In this document: in pieces, positions 1,676 through 12,027 of the stretch
Layout: each line of letters opens with the position of its first letter
How positions within the stretch are numbered: the stretch's first letter is position 1
Virus record (IMG/VR): IMGVR_UViG_2654587686_000016
Length of the DNA stretch: 13,445 nucleotides
Direction: 5' to 3' (one strand)
From: a virus
Taxonomy: Duplodnaviria > Heunggongvirae > Uroviricota > Caudoviricetes
The notes under the pieces: model-generated
The model's input: the letters and a program-made list of their open reading frames with translations, nothing else
What the model was told of the DNA's origin: nothing
The model's database searches: none
Program-made: the position numbers and the translations under genes

Positions 1676-1831
1676 TTACTCCTCAGGTTCGTAAGCTGTG
1701 AAGACAGCGACCTCCGTCTGGCCGGTTCGGATTCGTACCTCGCAGAGGTCTTTCCTCGTTACCAGTGCCGTCACTATGACGGTTAAACAGATGACGATCA
1801 GGGCGATTAACATCGCCTTTTGCTGCTTCAT
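1676..1831 (-). CDS. hok: Hok-family type I toxin (51 aa, HokD/RelF-like)
   Basis: Translation MKQQKAMLIALIVICLTVIVTALVTRKDLCEVRIRTGQTEVAVFTAYEPEE matches the Hok/RelF sequence as I remember it: a single TM helix and conserved Cys. SD AAGGAG lies 8 nt upstream of the ATG. The 70-aa ORF in the track is an in-frame over-extension. Confidence 0.85.
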   Translation of the reverse strand: MKQQKAMLIALIVICLTVIVTALVTRKDLCEVRIRTGQTEVAVFTAYEPEE

Positions 1832-2010
1832 AGCCTGCTTCTCCTTGCCTTTCGGCACGTAAGAGGCTAACCTACATGTGCAAAGCATGAAATTGGCCTC
1901 AGATTAATGTTAAGCGTCTTGCCGGACGCGTAATGTTAACTGGGGCTTTTCTCTATCTGCCTTTTGGTGTTCATGCCTGAGGCAGATAGCCTCAAGCACC
2001 CGCAGCAATT
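1832..2010 (-). promoter_or_regulatory. hok mRNA 5' leader with hok-like structural elements; expected location of the overlapping mok frame and the antisense sok RNA (+ strand)
   Basis: The - strand leader contains CTTGAGGCTATCTGCCTCAGG (a tac-like stem) and TAGCCTCTTAC...CAAGGAGAAG just upstream of the hok ATG, resembling canonical hok leaders from memory. The sok promoter and exact RNA ends are not mapped. Confidence 0.45.
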
Positions 2011-2388: not shown

Positions 2389-3486
2389 ATGACAATTTCA
2401 TATATTCCTATTCTGAAAGCGAAACGTTCTGAGTTATCAGCTTTATCGCAGCTATCCATTGAAAAGAAATCAAAAATTTTGCCATTACTCGAAATTGAAC
2501 CAGTGCCAATTGACCCTGATTCAGGTATTGCCTTAAAGAGTTATAACGAGACTCTTATAGAGTTCGGAAAGAAAGTCTCAAAATCTTGCTCAGATATGCA
2601 AGGTGTTTATATTGATGGATTATTAATTGAAGAGCATTTTATTTCTCCTGAAGATCATTACCCTATAATAAATGCGGTTAATCAAGTTAGAGATATGGAG
2701 ATAAGAGTTATTCCTGTCAGTTCACCAACTCGCCCATCTAACTATAAAAGAGCGATTGATGAATTAATGCAGAATGAAATATGCTTGAGATTAACCACGT
2801 TAGATCTGGTTAACCCACAATTAATAACGCATTACATTAATCATCTGGGAATTCCTTTATCAAATATTGATATAATTATTGACTTAAGAGATGAGTTAAC
2901 CGAGGATAAAATTAATTCCGGCGAACTATATACTTTGGCAATGGGATTGATAAACAATCTGGCGCACCTCAATGAATACAGAAAAGTGATTCTTTCTGGG
3001 GGTTCATTTCCTACAGATCTCAGTGATATTTCTGTTGGTCTATATTCTCAACCTCGAATCGAGTGGATTTTATGGCAGAGTTTAATGAATAGAAAAGAAC
3101 TTGCCAGAAATGTGATTTATAGTGATTATGGAGTACAGCACCCCGACTTTAATAGGCTTTCGACGCGATTCCCTAGCGTATCTGCCAGCGTCAGATACTC
3201 TGGAGATAATGACTTTTGGGTATTTCGAGGAAGAGTAGCTAATCGCTTTGGTTATGAACAATATGGTAAACATAGTGAGGATATTCTTGCTCATCGAGAA
3301 TATTCAGGGCCTACATTCTGTGCGGGAGATAGAGACATAGAATATTATGCAAACGAGTATCAAGCCTACAAAGCCAATCCCTCTGGTAACTATAAATTTG
3401 GTAGCCCAGAGGTATGGCGTAGGATTGGGCAAAACCATCACATAACTAAGGTTGTTGAGCAACTCGCCACTCTTTACGGGCTTTAA
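2389..3486 (+). CDS. Uncharacterised 365-aa protein, gene A of an AT-rich accessory cassette
   Basis: Long uninterrupted ORF at about 33-35% GC (counted on two 60-nt samples), with a weak SD (AAGG) 9 nt upstream. Hydrophilic, with no TM segment and no catalytic motif I can name. Preceded by a ~500-bp AT-rich ORF-free region. Confidence 0.8.
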   Translation: MTISYIPILKAKRSELSALSQLSIEKKSKILPLLEIEPVPIDPDSGIALKSYNETLIEFGKKVSKSCSDMQGVYIDGLLIEEHFISPEDHYPIINAVNQVRDMEIRVIPVSSPTRPSNYKRAIDELMQNEICLRLTTLDLVNPQLITHYINHLGIPLSNIDIIIDLRDELTEDKINSGELYTLAMGLINNLAHLNEYRKVILSGGSFPTDLSDISVGLYSQPRIEWILWQSLMNRKELARNVIYSDYGVQHPDFNRLSTRFPSVSASVRYSGDNDFWVFRGRVANRFGYEQYGKHSEDILAHREYSGPTFCAGDRDIEYYANEYQAYKANPSGNYKFGSPEVWRRIGQNHHITKVVEQLATLYGL

Positions 3487-4024
3487 GTTTAACTCGAACA
3501 GCTTCACGAAGCTCGCCAACATCCATACTATTGGCGAGTTTTGACCATAAGACGCGTTTAGGTTTATTTTTCAAATTCTGTAGCTCCCCTACATCACTTA
3601 ATAGGGAAAGCAATTCATCTTTCCAAAGAAGCATTGTTAAGGAAAGTTTGTCCACTTGTGGATTCAACTTGCTAGTTCGAATTGTTTTTAAATGGATACC
3701 TTGCCGTGCACCTTGCGTAACTTGCTTTATCCCCCACCATGATGGAACTATGCTTAAAGCATCATAAAGATGGCAATCAGAGACAACCAAAGTTACTTTA
3801 TCCATCACTGATGAGTAATGTTGCACCTGCGCTGGTAATCTGAGCAAGTTATCACTCTTGCTCTTCAACTCATAACCATGTATAAGCCCATTGATCACTG
3901 CTATATCAGCTCTGCTAGCCCCTAGATTCATCGTAAACTCATCAATGATTAGGGTGTCAGGATCTTTATGATGATCTCTCAGAATCTTGGCATGCACAGC
4001 CTTTCTTACATCAATGTCTCTCAT
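3446..4024 (-). CDS. Uncharacterised 192-aa protein with a PD-(D/E)xK-like nuclease signature, gene B of the AT-rich cassette
   Basis: ORF convergent with gene A, overlapping it by 41 nt at the 3' ends. Motif E29 ... RA-D40-IAVI ... GY-E52-L-K54 fits the D-x(n)-(D/E)xK pattern of a hydrophobic beta-strand followed by ExK. GC roughly 37-40% on two 60-nt samples. Confidence 0.75.
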   Translation of the reverse strand: MRDIDVRKAVHAKILRDHHKDPDTLIIDEFTMNLGASRADIAVINGLIHGYELKSKSDNLLRLPAQVQHYSSVMDKVTLVVSDCHLYDALSIVPSWWGIKQVTQGARQGIHLKTIRTSKLNPQVDKLSLTMLLWKDELLSLLSDVGELQNLKNKPKRVLWSKLANSMDVGELREAVRVKLKARKEWRVAQQP

Positions 4025-6332: not shown

Positions 6333-6758
6333 TTAGTGCATCACCACAGCATTCCCTGCCGGGCCGCCGCGATTCATCTGGTCATACAAAACAACCGCTG
6401 ACGCAACAAAATCATCGACATCCTTCACCAGCCGATCCCTCCGTTCGACGATCTCACGGTAATATTCAGAACTGTGGCTGCGCATACGGGCCACCAGCAA
6501 AGGCGGCATCGCCTTTTCGATCGCCGGTAACAGAGCCTGCATTTTTTCAACAGCATCAGGGGTGTCTTTATCCAGCCAACGGAAAATTTTCTGGGTATTA
6601 CGGGCCAGGGCTTCCGGATGGCTGTCGTCGTACAGTTCAGGGAACGTCATCCCCAGTTCGAAATAAGTCCGGGCTATTTCAGCTGCAGGAACTTTCTCAC
6701 CATCAGGGTATGCCCAGGCATTCATCGCCATGCGGATGTGCTCATGTTTGATTTTCAT
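6333..6758 (-). CDS. ydaT: YdaT-like protein (141 aa)
   Basis: Second gene of the operon divergent from the repressor, overlapping the upstream cro-like gene by 17 nt. Length matches K-12 Rac YdaT (about 140 aa, from memory), with SD GAGG upstream. Confidence 0.7.
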   Translation of the reverse strand: MKIKHEHIRMAMNAWAYPDGEKVPAAEIARTYFELGMTFPELYDDSHPEALARNTQKIFRWLDKDTPDAVEKMQALLPAIEKAMPPLLVARMRSHSSEYYREIVERRDRLVKDVDDFVASAVVLYDQMNRGGPAGNAVVMH

Positions 6759-7065
6759 GAATCATTTGCCTCTTGATGCTTCGGGTATGATCGTTTTCGT
6801 CATTTGGTTGCTTCATCGACATATTCTGCGAATAACATGACGAGCGTCGTAAGTATGTCCAATCAACATCAGGACGAAGTTCTTCACACAGGACACCACC
6901 TTTTGTTGCTCGTTCAATCGCAGGACATCTCTCAGCAGGTAACTGACGTACACCTTTGATCCATTGATTTACGCTTGGAGGAGATACACCTAAAAGCCTA
7001 GCCATTGCTGATTGCCCACCGACAACAGCACAAGCTCGTTTGAATGAATAGTTATCTTTTTTCAT
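6742..7065 (-). CDS. ydaS: Cro/CI-type HTH DNA-binding protein, YdaS-like (first gene of the rightward-equivalent early operon)
   Basis: MKKDNYSFKRACAVVGGQSAMARLLGVSPPSVNQWIKGVRQLPAERCPAIERA closely resembles Rac YdaS as I remember it. The ATG at 7065 has GGAG 9 nt upstream; the upstream in-frame ATG in the ORF track lies within the RBS. Divergent from the repressor gene. Confidence 0.75.
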   Translation of the reverse strand: MKKDNYSFKRACAVVGGQSAMARLLGVSPPSVNQWIKGVRQLPAERCPAIERATKGGVLCEELRPDVDWTYLRRSSCYSQNMSMKQPNDENDHTRSIKRQMIHENQT

Positions 7066-7089
7066 CGAATGAACTCCAAAAAACACGCA

Positions 7090-7140
7090 ACAATATTAGG
7101 CATAGCCTAATGAAATTGTCAATAGGCTATGCCTAATACA
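7090..7140. promoter_or_regulatory. OR-like control region: two 17-bp palindromic operators overlapping a sigma70-like promoter for the ydaS-like operon
   Basis: Operator ATTAGGCATAGCCTAAT at 7094-7110 is a perfect palindrome (arms ATTAGGC / GCCTAAT); a second copy (reverse complement ATTAGGCATAGCCTATT) is at 7120-7136. On the - strand, TTGACA (7121-7116), an 18-nt spacer and TAATAT (7097-7092) form a promoter pointing at the ydaS-like gene. Confidence 0.65.
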
Positions 7141-7189
7141 TCGAGAGTAGGGATTGCCTAACGCGATGCGCATAGGAGACTATTAAGCA

Positions 7190-7666
7190 ATGCTTAGTGG
7201 TAAAGACTTAGGCCGAGCGATAGAGCAGGCCATTAACAAAAAAATTGCATCAGGAGCCGTCAAATCAAAGGCGGAAATCGCACGTCATTTCAAAGTCCAA
7301 CCACCATCAATCCATGACTGGATTAAGAAAGGTTCGATAAGTAAAGACAAACTTCCAGAACTATGGCGTTTCTTTTCTGATGTGGTTGGTCCAGAGCATT
7401 GGGGGCTTAACGAATACCCCATACCAACCCCATCCGCTTCAGATACAAAAAGTGAACTTTTAGACATAAACAGCCTTTATCAAGCCGCCTCTGATGAAAA
7501 AAGAGCAATTGTGGCTTTCATCTTATCTGGAAATGCTACGGAGCCTAGTTGGGTTGATCATGACGTTCGCGCCTACATTGCCGCAATGGAAATGAAGGTA
7601 GCTAACTATCTGAAAAATCAAGAATCAAAACGGAAAAGCCAGAACATCACCAAGACAGGAACTTAA
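7190..7666 (+). CDS. racR: RacR-like prophage repressor (158 aa)
   Basis: 158-aa ORF, the same length as K-12 RacR from memory, divergent from the cro-like gene and flanked on both sides by the same operator sequence. N-terminal HTH-like segment; AGGAG 12 nt upstream of the ATG. Confidence 0.8.
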   Translation: MLSGKDLGRAIEQAINKKIASGAVKSKAEIARHFKVQPPSIHDWIKKGSISKDKLPELWRFFSDVVGPEHWGLNEYPIPTPSASDTKSELLDINSLYQAASDEKRAIVAFILSGNATEPSWVDHDVRAYIAAMEMKVANYLKNQESKRKSQNITKTGT

Positions 7667-7680
7667 ACTTATATGGTCCG

Positions 7681-7702
7681 ACGGGAAATTCCTAGTTCCC
7701 GT
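7681..7702 (+). terminator. Candidate weak terminator/hairpin downstream of the repressor gene
   Basis: Stem ACGGGAA / TTCCCGT (7 bp) with an 8-nt loop, 15 nt after the racR-like stop, followed by a weak T-rich stretch (TAGTTAAC). Confidence 0.3.
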
Positions 7703-7759
7703 TAGTTAACTCCTACTACCTCTTCCACAAACCATCACCTATTAGGTTGCGCCCAAATT

Positions 7760-7803
7760 ATTAGGCATAGCCTATTGACAAGTAATTAGGCATTTCCTAT
7801 AGT
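7760..7803 (+). promoter_or_regulatory. OL/PL-like promoter with overlapping operator, driving the ydaF-like through exonuclease, xis and int genes
   Basis: Operator copy ATTAGGCATAGCCTATT at 7760-7776. TTGACA at 7775-7780, an exactly 17-nt spacer containing an operator half-site (ATTAGGCAT), then TATAGT at 7798-7803. Mirrors the OR promoter. Confidence 0.6.
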
Positions 7804-7984
7804 TTTCCCATACCAACCCATCCCGTCCCACACAATACAGGGCAATACCTCGAGTTACCAGGCAGTGGTCAGGGGTTAAGTAGCCAGCCCGAGGCGTAAG
7901 AACATGACGGCAGGGTTCAACTTTAATAACTATGCAGCAGGTTTTTGTTCCGCTACCCCGGCGTTAAGGGGAAATGAGGTCAGC

Positions 7985-8140
7985 ATGGATACTATCGATC
8001 TTGGCAACAGCGAATCTCTGGTATGTGGCGTGTTCCCCAACCAGGACGGTACGTTCACCGCAATGACGTATACCAAAAGCAAAACGTTTAAAACCGAATC
8101 TGGAGCGCGTCGCTGGCTGGAAAGAAATTCAGGTGGGTGA
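7985..8140 (+). CDS. Small early protein (51 aa), YdaF-like
   Basis: Internal ATG of the 78-aa ORF with GAGG 7 nt upstream (MDTIDLGNSESLVCGVFPNQDGTFTAMTYTKSKTFKTESGARRWLERNSGG). Size and position, first gene after the PL-like promoter, match the small Rac gene next to racR. Confidence 0.5.
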   Translation: MDTIDLGNSESLVCGVFPNQDGTFTAMTYTKSKTFKTESGARRWLERNSGG

Positions 8141-8299: not shown

Positions 8300-8518
8300 A
8301 TGCAGAAACGAGAACCCGTCATCATCGCGCCAGACTATACCAATGATGAACTTTATGAGTGGATGCACCAGAAAATTAATGCAGCGCAGGATCTGAAATG
8401 GGCTAATGAAGTCAGGGCTAAGCAGGCTGAAAATCTGTCCTCTCTGGAGCAGGATATCACCAATCTGGAAAAAGCAGCGGCATTAACCATTGCCAGAATG
8501 ATTACATACCCGCGTTAA
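8300..8518 (+). CDS. Small early protein (72 aa), in the position of Rac kilR; function unverified
   Basis: ORF with GAGGA 6 nt upstream of the ATG, in the same orientation as the early operon. K-12 KilR is of similar size (about 73 aa, from memory), but no sequence identity can be asserted. Confidence 0.5.
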   Translation: MQKREPVIIAPDYTNDELYEWMHQKINAAQDLKWANEVRAKQAENLSSLEQDITNLEKAAALTIARMITYPR

Positions 8519-9086
8519 TAGCTAACCAACGAAGCTAAGGTTGGTAATTAAGGAGTTCTCCACGGGTGAGGTGGAGTGCTTGCGCCGGACACGGGTGAGC
8601 ATCCGGCACTGACAGTTTACTGAAAGGATATTTCCCTGAAAAGTCAGACCATAACGCGAAAGCGCACGGCGAGGTAGCTGGTTCATAGATAGCCTGTCGT
8701 TAAATTTTTGTCGACCGTGCGCTTCCGGTTGTGGCAATCCGCGAAATGGCGCGGCGGTAAGTATGGCGGGGTTATTCCTTCCCCCGTTGCGGACACCGGG
8801 TTGTCAGGTTGACCATACGCTTAAGTGACAACCCCGCTGCAACGCCCTCTGTTATCAATTTTCTGGTGACGTTTGGCGGTATCAGTTTTACTCCGTGACT
8901 GCTCTGCCGCCCTTTTTAAAGTGAATTTTGTGATGTGGTGAATGCGGCTGAGCGCACGCGGAACAGTTAAAACCAAAAACAGTGTTATGGGTGGATTCTC
9001 TGTATCCGGCGTTAATTGTTAACTGGTTAACGTCACCTGGAGGCACCAGGCACCGCATCACAAAATTCATTGTTGAGGACGCGATA

Positions 9087-9275
9087 ATGGAAACGTTATT
9101 ACCAAACGTTAATACGTCTGAAGGTTGTTTTGAAATTGGTGTCACTATCAGTAACCCTGTATTTACTGAAGATGCCATTAACAAGAGAAAACACGAACGG
9201 GAGTTATTAAATAAAATATGCATTCTTTCAATGCTGGCCCGTTTACGTCCGATACAAAAAGGATGCTGGCAATGA
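9087..9275 (+). CDS. Small hypothetical protein (62 aa)
   Basis: Internal ATG of the 97-aa ORF with GAGGA 7 nt upstream (METLLPNVNTSEGCFEIGVT...). Its stop overlaps the next ATG as ATGA. Confidence 0.5.
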   Translation: METLLPNVNTSEGCFEIGVTISNPVFTEDAINKRKHERELLNKICILSMLARLRPIQKGCWQ

Positions 9276-9555: not shown

Positions 9556-12027
9556 ATGAGTAAAGTCTTTATTTGCGCCGCCATTCCGGACGAACAGGCA
9601 ATAAAGGAAGAAGGTGCAGTCGCTGTAGCCACTGCCATTGAAGCCGGTGATGAATGTCGCGCCCGCGCAAAATTTCACTGGCAATTCCTGGAACATTATC
9701 CGGCTGCTCAGGACTGCGCTTATAAATTTATTGTCTGCGAGGATAAACCTGGCATACCCCGCCCTGCCCTCGATTCATGGGATGCTGAATATATGCAGGA
9801 AAACCGCTGGGATGAGGAGTCTGCTTCTTTTGTCCCGGTTGAGACTGAATCCTATCCGATGAACGTCACTTTTGACAAGCTGGCCCCTGAAGTACAGAAC
9901 GCTGTCATGGTTAAGTTCGACACATGTGAAAACATCACCGTTGATATGGTTATTAGCGCACAGGAATTGTTGCAGGAAGACATGGCAACATTCGACGGAC
10001 ATATCGTTGAAGCGTTGATGAAAATGCCAGAAGTTAACGCCATGTATCCGGAGCTTAAGTTGCACGCCATTGGGTGGGTTAAGCATAAATGTATTCCTGG
10101 TGCTAAATGGCCCGAAATTCAGGCAGAGATGCGCATCTGGAAAAAACGTCGCGAAGGTGAACGCAAGGAAACCGGAAAATACACGTCTGTTGTTGATCTC
10201 GCCCGCGCCAGAGCCAATCAACAGTACACTGAAAATTCAACAGGAAAAATCAGCCCGGTCATTGCTGCCATTCATCGCGAATACAAGCAGACATGGAAAA
10301 CACTGGATGACGAACTGGCCTACGCTCTCTGGCCTGGTGATGTGGATGCCGGAAACATTGACGGCAGCATCCATCGCTGGGCAAAAAATGAAGTTATCGA
10401 CAACGGCCGCGAAGACTGGAAGCGTATCTCGGCATCAATGCGCAAACAGCCTGATGCCCTTCGCTACGACCGCCAGACTATTTTTGGCCTTGTCCGTGAA
10501 CGTCCGATCGACATTCACAAAGATCCCGTAGCACTGAACAAATATATCTGCGAATACCTGACGACAAAGGGCGTGTTTGAGAATGAAGAAACAGACCTGG
10601 GCACTGTTGATGTTCTCCAGTCATCAGAAACACAAACTGATGCAGTGGAAACTGAGGTATCTGATATCCCAAAAAATGAAACCGCGCCGGAAGCTGAACC
10701 ATCTGTAGAGCGTGAGGGGCCGTTCTACTTCCTCTTCACCGACAAGGATGGCGAAAAATACGGTCGCGCAAACAAACTTTCTGGTCTGGATAAGGCGCTG
10801 TCTGCTGGGGCTACTGAAATCACGAAAGAAGAATATTTCGCCCGCAAAAACGGTACATACTCAGGTTCACAACAAAATACTGGTGCATCTGACACGACCG
10901 CACAACCAGGGTCAGTAAAAGTTACCGCTGACGAAGTAAACAAAATTATGCAGGCAGCCAATATCAGCCAGCCTGACGCCGATGAACTGCTTGCAGTATC
11001 ACGTGGTGAATTTGTTGAAGGGATTAGCGACCCGAATGATCCGAAATGGGTTAAGGGGATCCAGACCCGCGATTCTGTGAACCAGAACCAGCAAGAAACG
11101 GAACAGAACGACCAGAAAGCGGAACAAAACAGCCCAAATACGCAACAAAACGAGCCAGAAACGAAACAACCTGAACCAGTAGTGCAACAGGAACCGGAAA
11201 AGATCTGCACCGCCTGCGGTCAGAGCGGTGGCGGCAACTGCCCTGATTGTGGTGCGGTGATGGGTGACGCAACATACCAGGAAATATTCGATGGAGAGAA
11301 TCAGCCTGAAGTTCAGGAAAATGATCCGGAGGAAATGGAAGGCACTGCGCATCAGCACAAGGAGAACACTGGCGGCAATCAGCATCATGCCAGCGATATT
11401 GAAACTGGCGAGGCGTCAGATCCCTTAATTAAGGCGAACGGTCATCATAATCTCACATCCACCAGCAGAGCGGGGATTCATCTGATGATCGACCTTGAAA
11501 CCATGGGAAAAAATCCCGATGCCCCGATTATCTCAATAGGTGCAATATTTTTCGATCCGCAAACCGGAGATATGGGACCGGAATTTAGTAAGACTATCGA
11601 TCTGGAAACTGCTGGCGGAGTCATTGATCGGGACACCATTAAATGGTGGCTTAAGCAATCACGCGAAGCGCAATCTGCCATTATGACCGATGAAATCCCG
11701 TTAGATGATGCACTGTTACAATTGCGGGAATTTATCGACGAAAACTCCGGTGAATTTTTTGTTCAGGTCTGGGGAAATGGAGCCAACTTCGACAACACGA
11801 TTTTGCGCCGTTCATACGAACGGCAGGGGATCCCCTGCCCGTGGCGTTACTACAACGATCGCGATGTACGCACAATCGTTGAGCTGGGGAAAGCCATAGA
11901 CTTCGATGCCAGAACGGCTATTCCATTCGAAGGTGAGCGCCATAATGCACTTGATGACGCCCGTTACCAGGCAAAATACGTTTCAGTTATCTGGCAAAAA
12001 CTGATCCCGAGTCAGGCTGATTTTTAA
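9556..12027 (+). CDS. Large exonuclease (823 aa) in the RecE position: C-terminal DnaQ-like DEDDh 3'-5' exonuclease domain, central Q/E/N-rich linker and a CxxC...CxxC zinc ribbon
   Basis: Long ORF with GAGG 9 nt upstream. C-terminal motifs MIDLETMG (Exo I, D-x-E), VWGNGANFDNTIL (Exo II) and HNALDDARYQA (Exo III, H-x4-D) are seen directly. Zinc ribbon CTACGQSGGGNCPDCG at nt 11207-11257. The low-complexity linker has a T-poor DNA repeat at about 11090-11200. Confidence 0.8.
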   Translation: MSKVFICAAIPDEQAIKEEGAVAVATAIEAGDECRARAKFHWQFLEHYPAAQDCAYKFIVCEDKPGIPRPALDSWDAEYMQENRWDEESASFVPVETESYPMNVTFDKLAPEVQNAVMVKFDTCENITVDMVISAQELLQEDMATFDGHIVEALMKMPEVNAMYPELKLHAIGWVKHKCIPGAKWPEIQAEMRIWKKRREGERKETGKYTSVVDLARARANQQYTENSTGKISPVIAAIHREYKQTWKTLDDELAYALWPGDVDAGNIDGSIHRWAKNEVIDNGREDWKRISASMRKQPDALRYDRQTIFGLVRERPIDIHKDPVALNKYICEYLTTKGVFENEETDLGTVDVLQSSETQTDAVETEVSDIPKNETAPEAEPSVEREGPFYFLFTDKDGEKYGRANKLSGLDKALSAGATEITKEEYFARKNGTYSGSQQNTGASDTTAQPGSVKVTADEVNKIMQAANISQPDADELLAVSRGEFVEGISDPNDPKWVKGIQTRDSVNQNQQETEQNDQKAEQNSPNTQQNEPETKQPEPVVQQEPEKICTACGQSGGGNCPDCGAVMGDATYQEIFDGENQPEVQENDPEEMEGTAHQHKENTGGNQHHASDIETGEASDPLIKANGHHNLTSTSRAGIHLMIDLETMGKNPDAPIISIGAIFFDPQTGDMGPEFSKTIDLETAGGVIDRDTIKWWLKQSREAQSAIMTDEIPLDDALLQLREFIDENSGEFFVQVWGNGANFDNTILRRSYERQGIPCPWRYYNDRDVRTIVELGKAIDFDARTAIPFEGERHNALDDARYQAKYVSVIWQKLIPSQADF

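Follow-up and report, generated by a model that had tools for sequence, protein, structure and literature searches.

What occupies the stretch without a convincing gene in the early operon of the Caudoviricetes record IMGVR_UViG_2654587686_000016? In the analysed window, the whole 13,445-nucleotide stretch of DNA, the interval in question measures exactly 568 bp (8519-9086) and extends from the stop codon of ydfC (8516-8518) to the ATG of dicB (9087). An initial annotation made from the sequence alone had pointed to the lack of a credible ORF and to several inverted repeats, had drawn an analogy to the Rac prophage, where sieB occupies this place on the opposite strand, and had proposed either a structured non-coding RNA or a decayed gene. 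We conclude that the interval is, with high probability, the ydfC-dicB intercistronic region of a Qin-type dicBF operon encoding the small RNA DicF, located in a lambdoid prophage with Rac-type immunity. DicF was among the first bacterial regulatory RNAs ever described and represents a prophage means of halting host cell division and rewiring sugar metabolism.

Coding potential and identity of the ydfC-dicB spacer

The view that the spacer lacks a credible ORF held up on both strands. On the plus strand, the longest ORF within the spacer encodes at most 34 amino acids, while a 97-aa ORF starting with GTG (8982-9275) only prolongs the dicB frame in the upstream direction. On the minus strand, Pfam searches with the ORFs of 71, 51 and 201 aa returned no match. 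A small minus-strand protein, encoded either by a 54-aa ORF (8522-8686) or by the 51-aa ORF antisense to DicF, would agree with the annotation of a hypothetical protein (WP_001358071.1) by PGAP at the position of the 54-aa ORF in some genomes, with two minus-strand hypothetical proteins called in phage records and with the unbroken state of the ORFs in near-identical copies. However, intact ORFs in near-identical DNA carry no information on selection, and PGAP leaves the ORF uncalled in equally similar genomes, including the 99.8% match described below and K-12. Wherever the DNA diverges, the C-terminus is altered or broken by stops and frameshifts. None of the candidates has a Pfam match, and all are antisense to a transcript whose hairpins account for the conservation. 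We therefore regard a minus-strand protein as very unlikely.

The idea that the spacer is what remains of a decayed gene, for instance sieB, is based on positional analogy, as sieB is located on the opposite strand in Rac, flanked by ydaF and kilR. Alignment to Rac sieB had been suggested as a check, and a tblastn search of the whole window with K-12 SieB detected no remnant in the spacer, the best hit (E 3.2, 12 residues) being located elsewhere. On the strength of this result and the Pfam searches of all minus-strand ORFs, a sieB pseudogene is rejected at the sequence level. Further, the homology to Rac covers only the non-coding RNA KilS and the spacer that follows it, and, in contrast to a pseudogene in decay, the interval is well structured and highly conserved. 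The decayed-gene proposal is thus left with practically no probability.

The covariance-model search that had been recommended at the outset identified the RNA. Scanning the window against Rfam at curated thresholds yielded two matches, one of them DicF (RF00039), which aligns to 8861-8912 on the plus strand over the entire model (positions 1-52 of 52) with 76.7 bits compared with a gathering score of 48 (E 7.6e-16). The same stretch is annotated as 'DicF antisense sRNA' in the record of phage Tritos. In the minimum free energy (MFE) structure, the 5' part of DicF (8860-8874) is unpaired and is followed by the terminator hairpin (8875-8911), consisting of stems 8875-8881/8905-8911 and 8883-8887/8897-8901, and then by TTTTT at 8913-8917. 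The hairpin and T-run that had been noticed near 8875-8918 correspond to this terminator. It was not reported by a simple terminator scan because the hairpin contains an internal loop and its loop exceeds the limit of the scan. The locus displays features of the family, namely the covariance score, a single-stranded 5' region followed by terminator and U-tract, and a position between ydfC and dicB in a lambdoid prophage early operon, with the same layout as in K-12 and phage Tritos. Nothing contradicts the identification as DicF, in which we have very high confidence. The proposal of a structured non-coding RNA was thus right in kind, but the RNA is not new: it is the classical DicF (RF00039), an sRNA already characterized by experiment, and 100% identical to that of K-12. 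The feature as a whole is an already known one, a real and functional DicF locus together with its processing helices, and reading the sequence alone had singled out this functional non-coding locus, terminator included.

The surrounding genes support this assignment. Their order, ydfA (DUF1391)-ydfB-ydfC-dicF-dicB (PF05358)-ydfD (DUF1482), is that of Qin and not that of Rac. Pfam searches confirmed DicB, DUF1482 and DUF1391 among the neighbors. A 99.8% identical chromosomal locus carries ydfC and dicB as annotated genes, with a DUF1391 gene and a 42-aa gene ahead of them and a DUF1482 gene behind. Upstream, positions 6735-7972 are 86.7% identical to racR-ydaS and encode YdaS and YdaT domains. 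Judged by sequence, the immunity of the window is of the Rac type and the cargo between promoter and exonuclease of the Qin type. The promoter candidate is found outside the spacer, between a RacR-like repressor ORF (7190-7666) and ydfA (7985-8140), and is the likely source of the DicF precursor transcript. The Rac analogy was half right: the immunity is of the Rac type and Rac contains a homologous interval, but the gene order is not that of Rac. The sieB-kilR interval of Rac, when read on the kilR strand, is homologous to the spacer through its non-coding part and not through sieB.

Table 1 Features of the ydfC-dicB spacer and its surroundings, in coordinates of the window.
Feature	Positions	Strand	Evidence
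PL-like sigma-70 promoter candidate for ydfABC-dicF-dicB	7775-7803	+	TTGACA-17-TATAGT, 11/12 consensus positions
ydfC (72 aa), left boundary	8300-8518	+	RefSeq 'protein YdfC' in 99.8% identical locus and in K-12
Four consecutive hairpins directly after the ydfC stop (8521-8545, 8553-8581, 8584-8607, 8609-8647)	8521-8647	+	Predicted fold
86-nt hairpin with upper stem GCGCACGG/CCGTGCGC; putative RNase III site	8649-8734	+	Fold z -3.20
Leader of the 190-nt precursor	8735-8859	+	Repeat 8798-8806/8826-8834; alternative GCGGGGTT 8767-8774/AACCCCGC 8830-8837
DicF sRNA, 53 nt	8860-8912	+	Rfam RF00039; K-12 dicF (b1574) mapped with 0 mismatches; fold z -2.32
Intrinsic DicF terminator, U-tract; in read-through RNA also the base of the long duplex	8913-8917	+	Sequence; predicted fold
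5' arm of the 21-bp long-range duplex; putative RNase III site and 3' end of 72-nt DicF	8920-8940	+	19-nt repeat
Inner part of the DicF-dicB spacer; hairpins at 8944-8959, 9008-9034 and 9036-9050	8941-9050	+	Predicted fold
3' arm of the long duplex (9051-9071), then dicB Shine-Dalgarno GAGGA (9075-9079)	9051-9079	+	Predicted fold
dicB (62 aa, cell-division inhibitor), right boundary	9087-9275	+	Pfam PF05358, full length, E 1.7e-37; RefSeq dicB

RNA structure and predicted processing of the DicF precursor

The RNA structure of the spacer is above chance. Folded as plus-strand RNA, the whole spacer reaches -216.5 kcal/mol compared with -185.8 +/- 7.1 kcal/mol for dinucleotide shuffles (z -4.34, none of 100 as stable), while three 569-nt stretches of coding DNA from the same window, used as controls, gave z-scores of -1.16, +0.99 and +0.23. 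The three inverted repeats described initially all exist, shifted by 1-2 nt: CCAAC at 8526-8530 pairs with GTTGG at 8540-8544, CGAAAGCGCACGG at 8657-8669 with CCGTGCGCTTCCG at 8715-8727 (13 nt, 92% complementary), and a segment beginning with GCGGGGTT at 8766-8780 with one ending in AACCCCGC at 8823-8837 (15 nt, 80% complementary). The last of these competes with a perfect 9-nt repeat (8798-8806/8826-8834) for one 3' arm. The longest repeat had gone unnoticed; it joins 8922-8940 with 9051-9069 over 19 nt at 95% complementarity and a distance of 110 nt, and two matches to its pattern were found in none of 200 shuffles of the window. This repeat falls within the most structured segment of all, 8913-9092 (z -5.01, 0 of 200 shuffles as stable).

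Following the ydfC stop codon, the RNA is predicted to fold into four small hairpins, the first of which contains the CCAAC/GTTGG repeat. As a group they are more stable than expected (z -2.19, 3 of 200 shuffles as stable) and they coincide with the variable part of the spacer, with 27% to 100% identity to other DicF loci. Next is an 86-nt hairpin (8649-8734) formed by stems 8649-8655/8728-8734, 8657-8658/8726-8727, 8660-8669/8715-8724 and 8670-8672/8711-8713. Its 22 predicted pairs in four stacked stems correspond to the helix of about 20 bp, or two turns, expected of an RNase III site. All 36 distinct variants of this hairpin, those from Rac and Salmonella included, fold alike with energies of -23 to -38 kcal/mol, although the apical loop is very variable. 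The upper stem shows double changes, such as the replacement of A-U by G-C at 8661/8723 in the Rac variant.

The leader between this hairpin and DicF is not significantly structured when folded alone (z -1.33). Its identity is 97% or more in most of the 96 other distinct DicF loci compared, also when the flanks have diverged; it drops to 85% in five loci and to 92% in one, where a 30-nt block is replaced. In the MFE structure of the whole precursor, leader segments 8751-8763 and 8786-8793 engage in alternative long-range pairings with the 3' half of DicF, which partly depend on C8790, an A in most relatives. Speculatively, this near-invariant 125-nt leader of the 190-nt form may have a role of its own besides processing. 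The junction between leader and DicF (8859/8860), where RNase E cleavage frees DicF (PMC10448788), is A/U-rich and, in the precursor fold, forms the loop of a weak hairpin (8850-8857/8864-8871).

Downstream of DicF, 21 pairs between 8920-8940 and 9051-9071 build a long-range duplex, likewise with the roughly 20 bp (two turns) of an RNase III site. In the predicted fold, this duplex is extended by 7 bp, three of them G-U pairs, between 8913-8919 and 9073-9079, which takes in the dicB Shine-Dalgarno sequence located 7 nt upstream of the start codon. The extended duplex is thus predicted to occlude the Shine-Dalgarno sequence of dicB.

These helices can be related to published DicF species. DicF has no promoter of its own but is processed from a polycistronic transcript that starts upstream of ydfA, and primer extension did not find an internal promoter (PMC10448788). 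Formation of a 190-nt species depends on RNase III, that of the 53-nt species on RNase E (PMC10448788). Two routes lead to the 3' end of DicF: Rho-independent termination, which leaves 53 nt, and cleavage of the full-length mRNA by RNase III, which leaves 72 nt (PMC5069750). Counted back from 8912, a length of 190 nt puts the 5' end near 8723, within the 3' arm of the 86-nt hairpin; counted forward from 8860, a length of 72 nt puts the 3' end near 8931, halfway along the 5' arm of the 21-bp duplex. We have good confidence in matching the two RNase III events with hairpin 8649-8734 and duplex 8920-8940/9051-9071, but this match is an inference from published RNA lengths. Processing as in K-12 is assumed for the present locus on the basis of 100% DicF sequence identity.

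We propose the following sequence of events. A polycistronic early-left transcript starting upstream of ydfA would carry the spacer. RNase III would cut hairpin 8649-8734 and free the precursor from the ydfABC message, giving rise to the 190-nt species, and RNase E would then cut at the A/U-rich junction 8859/8860 to generate the mature 5' end of DicF. Transcripts stopping at the DicF hairpin and U-tract by intrinsic termination would result in the 53-nt form, while read-through transcripts would be cut by RNase III in duplex 8920-8940/9051-9071 and yield the 72-nt form. DicF itself is an Hfq-dependent sRNA that pairs with the ftsZ, xylR, pykA and manX mRNAs and prevents their translation. The remainder of the spacer would serve mainly as processing and expression scaffolding, with the duplex and the pairing of U-tract and Shine-Dalgarno sequence probably keeping translation of the toxic dicB low until they are cleaved or melted.

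Conservation of DicF loci and resemblance of the DicF-dicB spacer to STnc100

Most E. coli genomes contain the DicF cassette, frequently more than once. By megablast, 4719 of the 5426 complete E. coli genomes gave matches to the 568-bp spacer, at a median of 2 copies and a maximum of ten per genome; 60 phage records matched as well, and DicF is annotated in one of them. Scanning one genome per species for the DicF core turned up only 8 loci, from Escherichia, Shigella, a single Salmonella and a few MAG contigs. Among viral contigs, the same core was located 120 times; these loci, together with three annotated ones, resulted in 96 distinct full-length segments. Conservation across these segments is mosaic. 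Positions 8741-9086 reach 97% identity or more in most segments; 8651-8740 combine conserved stems with a hypervariable apical loop; and 8519-8650 range from 100% identity to unrelated, this part being swapped out in other prophage contexts. About a dozen DicF loci show 82-93% identity in the DicF-dicB spacer, compared with at least 97% in most.

Covariation was assessed for 107 pairs in 92 distinct E. coli-type loci. Within the proposed structure, 98.4% of the alignment cells are paired, but shuffles score equally and a single pair shows a double change, the sequences being too alike to give the test statistical power. The more diverged Rac and Salmonella variants gave a clearer picture. Substitutions in the long duplex keep the pairing on the plus strand only: position 8936/9055 is CG in 54, UG in 35 and UA in 2 cases, and position 8937/9054 is GC in 55 and GU in 37.

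The only less charted aspect of the locus is a resemblance of the DicF-dicB spacer to STnc100, a prophage RNA with no known function that has recently been linked to PasD sRNAs. At permissive thresholds, the STnc100 model (RF02076) aligns to 8910-9119 over all 206 positions, with agreement in the closing helix as well as in the motifs GGUGAAU and UCACC.GGAGGCACC.GGCACC. The score of 38.7 bits (E 3e-7 to 9e-7) lies below the threshold of 47, and the spacer is thus not filed as a member of the family; the Rac copy of the spacer scores 28 bits. The resemblance probably reflects real homology. Similar to the DicF-dicB spacer, STnc100/PasD RNAs are structured, about 200 nt long, held together by a long-range closing helix and located in prophages, and they share the motifs named above. 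More than 120 viral contigs contain STnc100-type cores, a single contig having as many as three, and the cores often occur just downstream of promoter-like sequences and before a terminator. Typical copies occupy other parts of phage genomes, for example downstream of stx2, and are often promoter-proximal with a terminator of their own, whereas the element described here forms the dicB 5' UTR directly after the DicF terminator.

This raises the question of whether 8913-9086 could be an autonomous RNA of the STnc100/PasD kind, acting as a stable sRNA or a cis-regulator, instead of mere processing and 5'-UTR scaffold. The segment has the strongest structure of the region (z -5.01, 0/200) and aligns to the full STnc100 model at E ~3e-7, closing helix and motifs included. 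It is conserved at 97% or more in most DicF loci and at 82-93% in about a dozen, also precedes kilR in Rac with 80% identity, and belongs with a type of core that is plentiful in viral contigs. However, 38.7 bits fall short of the curated 47 and the Rac copy reaches only 28, a gene follows directly at the place where canonical STnc100 copies have their own terminator, and the Salmonella DicF-like locus lacks the element entirely. STnc100 itself is without known function, and no transcript evidence for a separate RNA was found. An autonomous RNA is thus considered unlikely, and a scaffold for processing and dicB expression remains the preferred interpretation. With comparable reserve, we put forward the speculative possibility that the 174-nt DicF-dicB stretch is a diverged STnc100/PasD member recruited as a toxin 5' UTR, for dicB here and kilR in Rac, whose closing helix would couple read-through, RNase III cleavage and translation. 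If so, one strand of this helix would be contributed by the DicF terminator U-tract and its flank, the other by the Shine-Dalgarno region, and toxin would be made only from read-through transcripts that have been cleaved.

The element 3' of DicF could also be conceived as a put-like cis-acting antiterminator RNA, as found in HK022, serving an early operon without N. The operon indeed contains no recognizable N gene, its exonuclease, xis and int genes have to be transcribed past terminators, and some STnc100-type copies are placed between a promoter, which they directly follow, and a terminator. The DicF terminator itself precedes the element and could not be a target of its action. Indirectly tested by searching HK022 positions 20000-40751, early and late regions that should hold putL and putR, against Rfam, the idea received no support: no match was obtained at E <= 0.1, and STnc100, the one model that matches the spacer, therefore does not recognize put RNA. 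A put-like antiterminator is extremely unlikely and was dropped as unsupported.

Comparison with known processed RNA systems

The closest relative of the locus is that of the K-12 Qin prophage, which has the same layout of 340-341 nt between ydfC and DicF, a 53-nt DicF and 174 nt between DicF and dicB. DicF is 100% and the spacer about 98% identical, with about a dozen substitutions and one 1-nt indel, and both RNase III-type helices are common to the two loci. The surroundings differ. The operon follows DicA/DicC in K-12 Qin and a Rac-type repressor region (RacR, YdaS, YdaT) in the window, while the IS2-disrupted ydfE and intQ found downstream in K-12 contrast with an intact 823-aa exonuclease, xis and int here.

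In Rac, KilS (K-12 b4833) takes the position of DicF in the early-left operon, and there too a small gene for a cell-division inhibitor follows. DicF-like sequences in Rac have reportedly already been described by Faubladier and Bouche in 1994. KilS is preceded by an RNase III-type hairpin as in the present locus, its upper-stem bases changed but complementary, and ends in a related terminator hairpin, which gives 39.1 bits with the DicF model, below threshold. Between KilS and kilR, a spacer with 80% identity to 8907-9071 retains the long duplex. In contrast, the sequence 5' of the terminator is unrelated, with an RprA-like stretch replacing the DicF seed, and the leader is about 30 nt long compared with 125 nt here. 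The flanking genes differ as well, with sieB on the opposite strand upstream instead of ydfB-ydfC and kilR downstream instead of dicB. The Salmonella DicF-like locus likewise shares the hairpin and a DicF-like terminator but has a different 5' part and lacks both the long leader and the downstream spacer. As judged from these comparisons, the picture is that of a cassette in which a conserved RNase III hairpin and a terminator would enclose an exchangeable targeting segment.

RNase III is known to cut the early leaders of other phages, such as the lambda N leader and the T7 early mRNAs, thereby separating cistrons and, in some cases, changing downstream translation. These leaders resemble the present locus in that a long duplex is part of a polycistronic early transcript. 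They differ in that the cuts proposed here would also release a trans-acting sRNA, and may affect dicB translation. What the analysis adds to the established account of DicF is small: a coordinate-level map that ties each inverted repeat to a published processing event, the sub-threshold link of the DicF-dicB spacer to STnc100, and the observation that the upstream hairpin is common to the DicF, KilS and Salmonella variants, in which the targeting part is swapped, with the downstream duplex shared as well.

Predicted control and folding of DicF

Judged by sequence, the prophage is a mosaic of Rac and Qin (6735-8124). Its repressor region, which encodes RacR-, YdaS- and YdaT-like proteins, is 86.7% identical to Rac, while the ydfB-ydfC-dicF-dicB-ydfD cargo located downstream is of the Qin type. 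DicF would therefore be controlled here by a RacR-type repressor instead of DicA.

At 8751-8763 the leader, the 5' part of the DicF precursor, carries GGCGGTAAGTA, which nearly repeats the sequence GGCGGTATCAG that forms the 5' arm of DicF's terminator (8875-8885). In the MFE structure of the long precursor, GGCGGTAAGTA pairs with the 3' arm of the terminator, thus replacing the local hairpin. This predicted pairing could represent an alternative fold with an effect on termination or on processing, or it could be a fold-prediction artefact.

Other genes of the prophage

An Rfam scan of the window identified the sok antitoxin RNA (RF01794) at 1826-2001 on the minus strand, where it scores 119.8 bits (threshold 59). 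Based on this match, the region is a toxin-antitoxin locus of the hok/sok type and the overlapping ORF is likely the mok/hok frame. Two convergent genes located between hok/sok and the replication genes, encoding proteins of 365 and 192 amino acids, look like an anti-phage defence moron based on their profile matches. Downstream of ydfD, the 'exonuclease' gene shares only two short stretches with Rac recE (82-90% identity), and its product is thus not a simple RecE orthologue.

Coordinates of features in the window and, where named, at related loci
Feature	Location	Strand	Remarks
Likely mok/hok frame	ORF 1676-1888	-	Overlaps sok match
365-aa protein	2389-3483	+	Pfam Beta_protein, E 7e-52; PADLOC PD-Lambda-2_C, E 1.4e-40
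192-aa protein	3449-4024	-	Convergent to 365-aa gene; PADLOC model 'cll', E 2.4e-28
YdaT-like ORF	6336-6758		Repressor region
YdaS-like ORF	6745-7086		Repressor region
RacR-like 158-aa ORF	7190-7666		Repressor region
823-aa 'exonuclease'	9556-12024	+	C-terminal Rv2179c-like 3'-5' exoribonuclease domain, E 5.5e-67
KilS sRNA	E. coli K-12 Rac locus, 7406-7503	-	DicF positional homologue
DicF-like terminator locus	Salmonella enterica, 3639-3800	-	Terminator 47 nt, 93.6% identical

Related RNA elements in other prophages and viruses

The core TCACCGGGAGGCACCCGGCACC, of the type found in the structured prophage RNA STnc100, is very frequent among IMG/VR viral contigs (at least 120 matches). Among the matches listed, contigs carry up to three copies, a promoter-like TTGAC.-17-TAA.TT sequence often directly precedes the core and a strong terminator often follows about 80 nt after it.

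KilS of Rac occupies the same position as DicF and has a related terminator. AUUGCUGUGUGUAGUC in its 5' part exactly matches the consensus of RprA (28.1 bits with the Rfam RprA model, E 0.41), which suggests that this prophage sRNA has copied a segment of a core-genome sRNA. The Salmonella enterica locus shares the upstream RNase III-type hairpin with the DicF locus. Its 5' segment differs from that of DicF, both the long leader and the STnc100-like spacer are absent, and the DicF-like terminator is directly followed by an ORF that has an RBS of its own.
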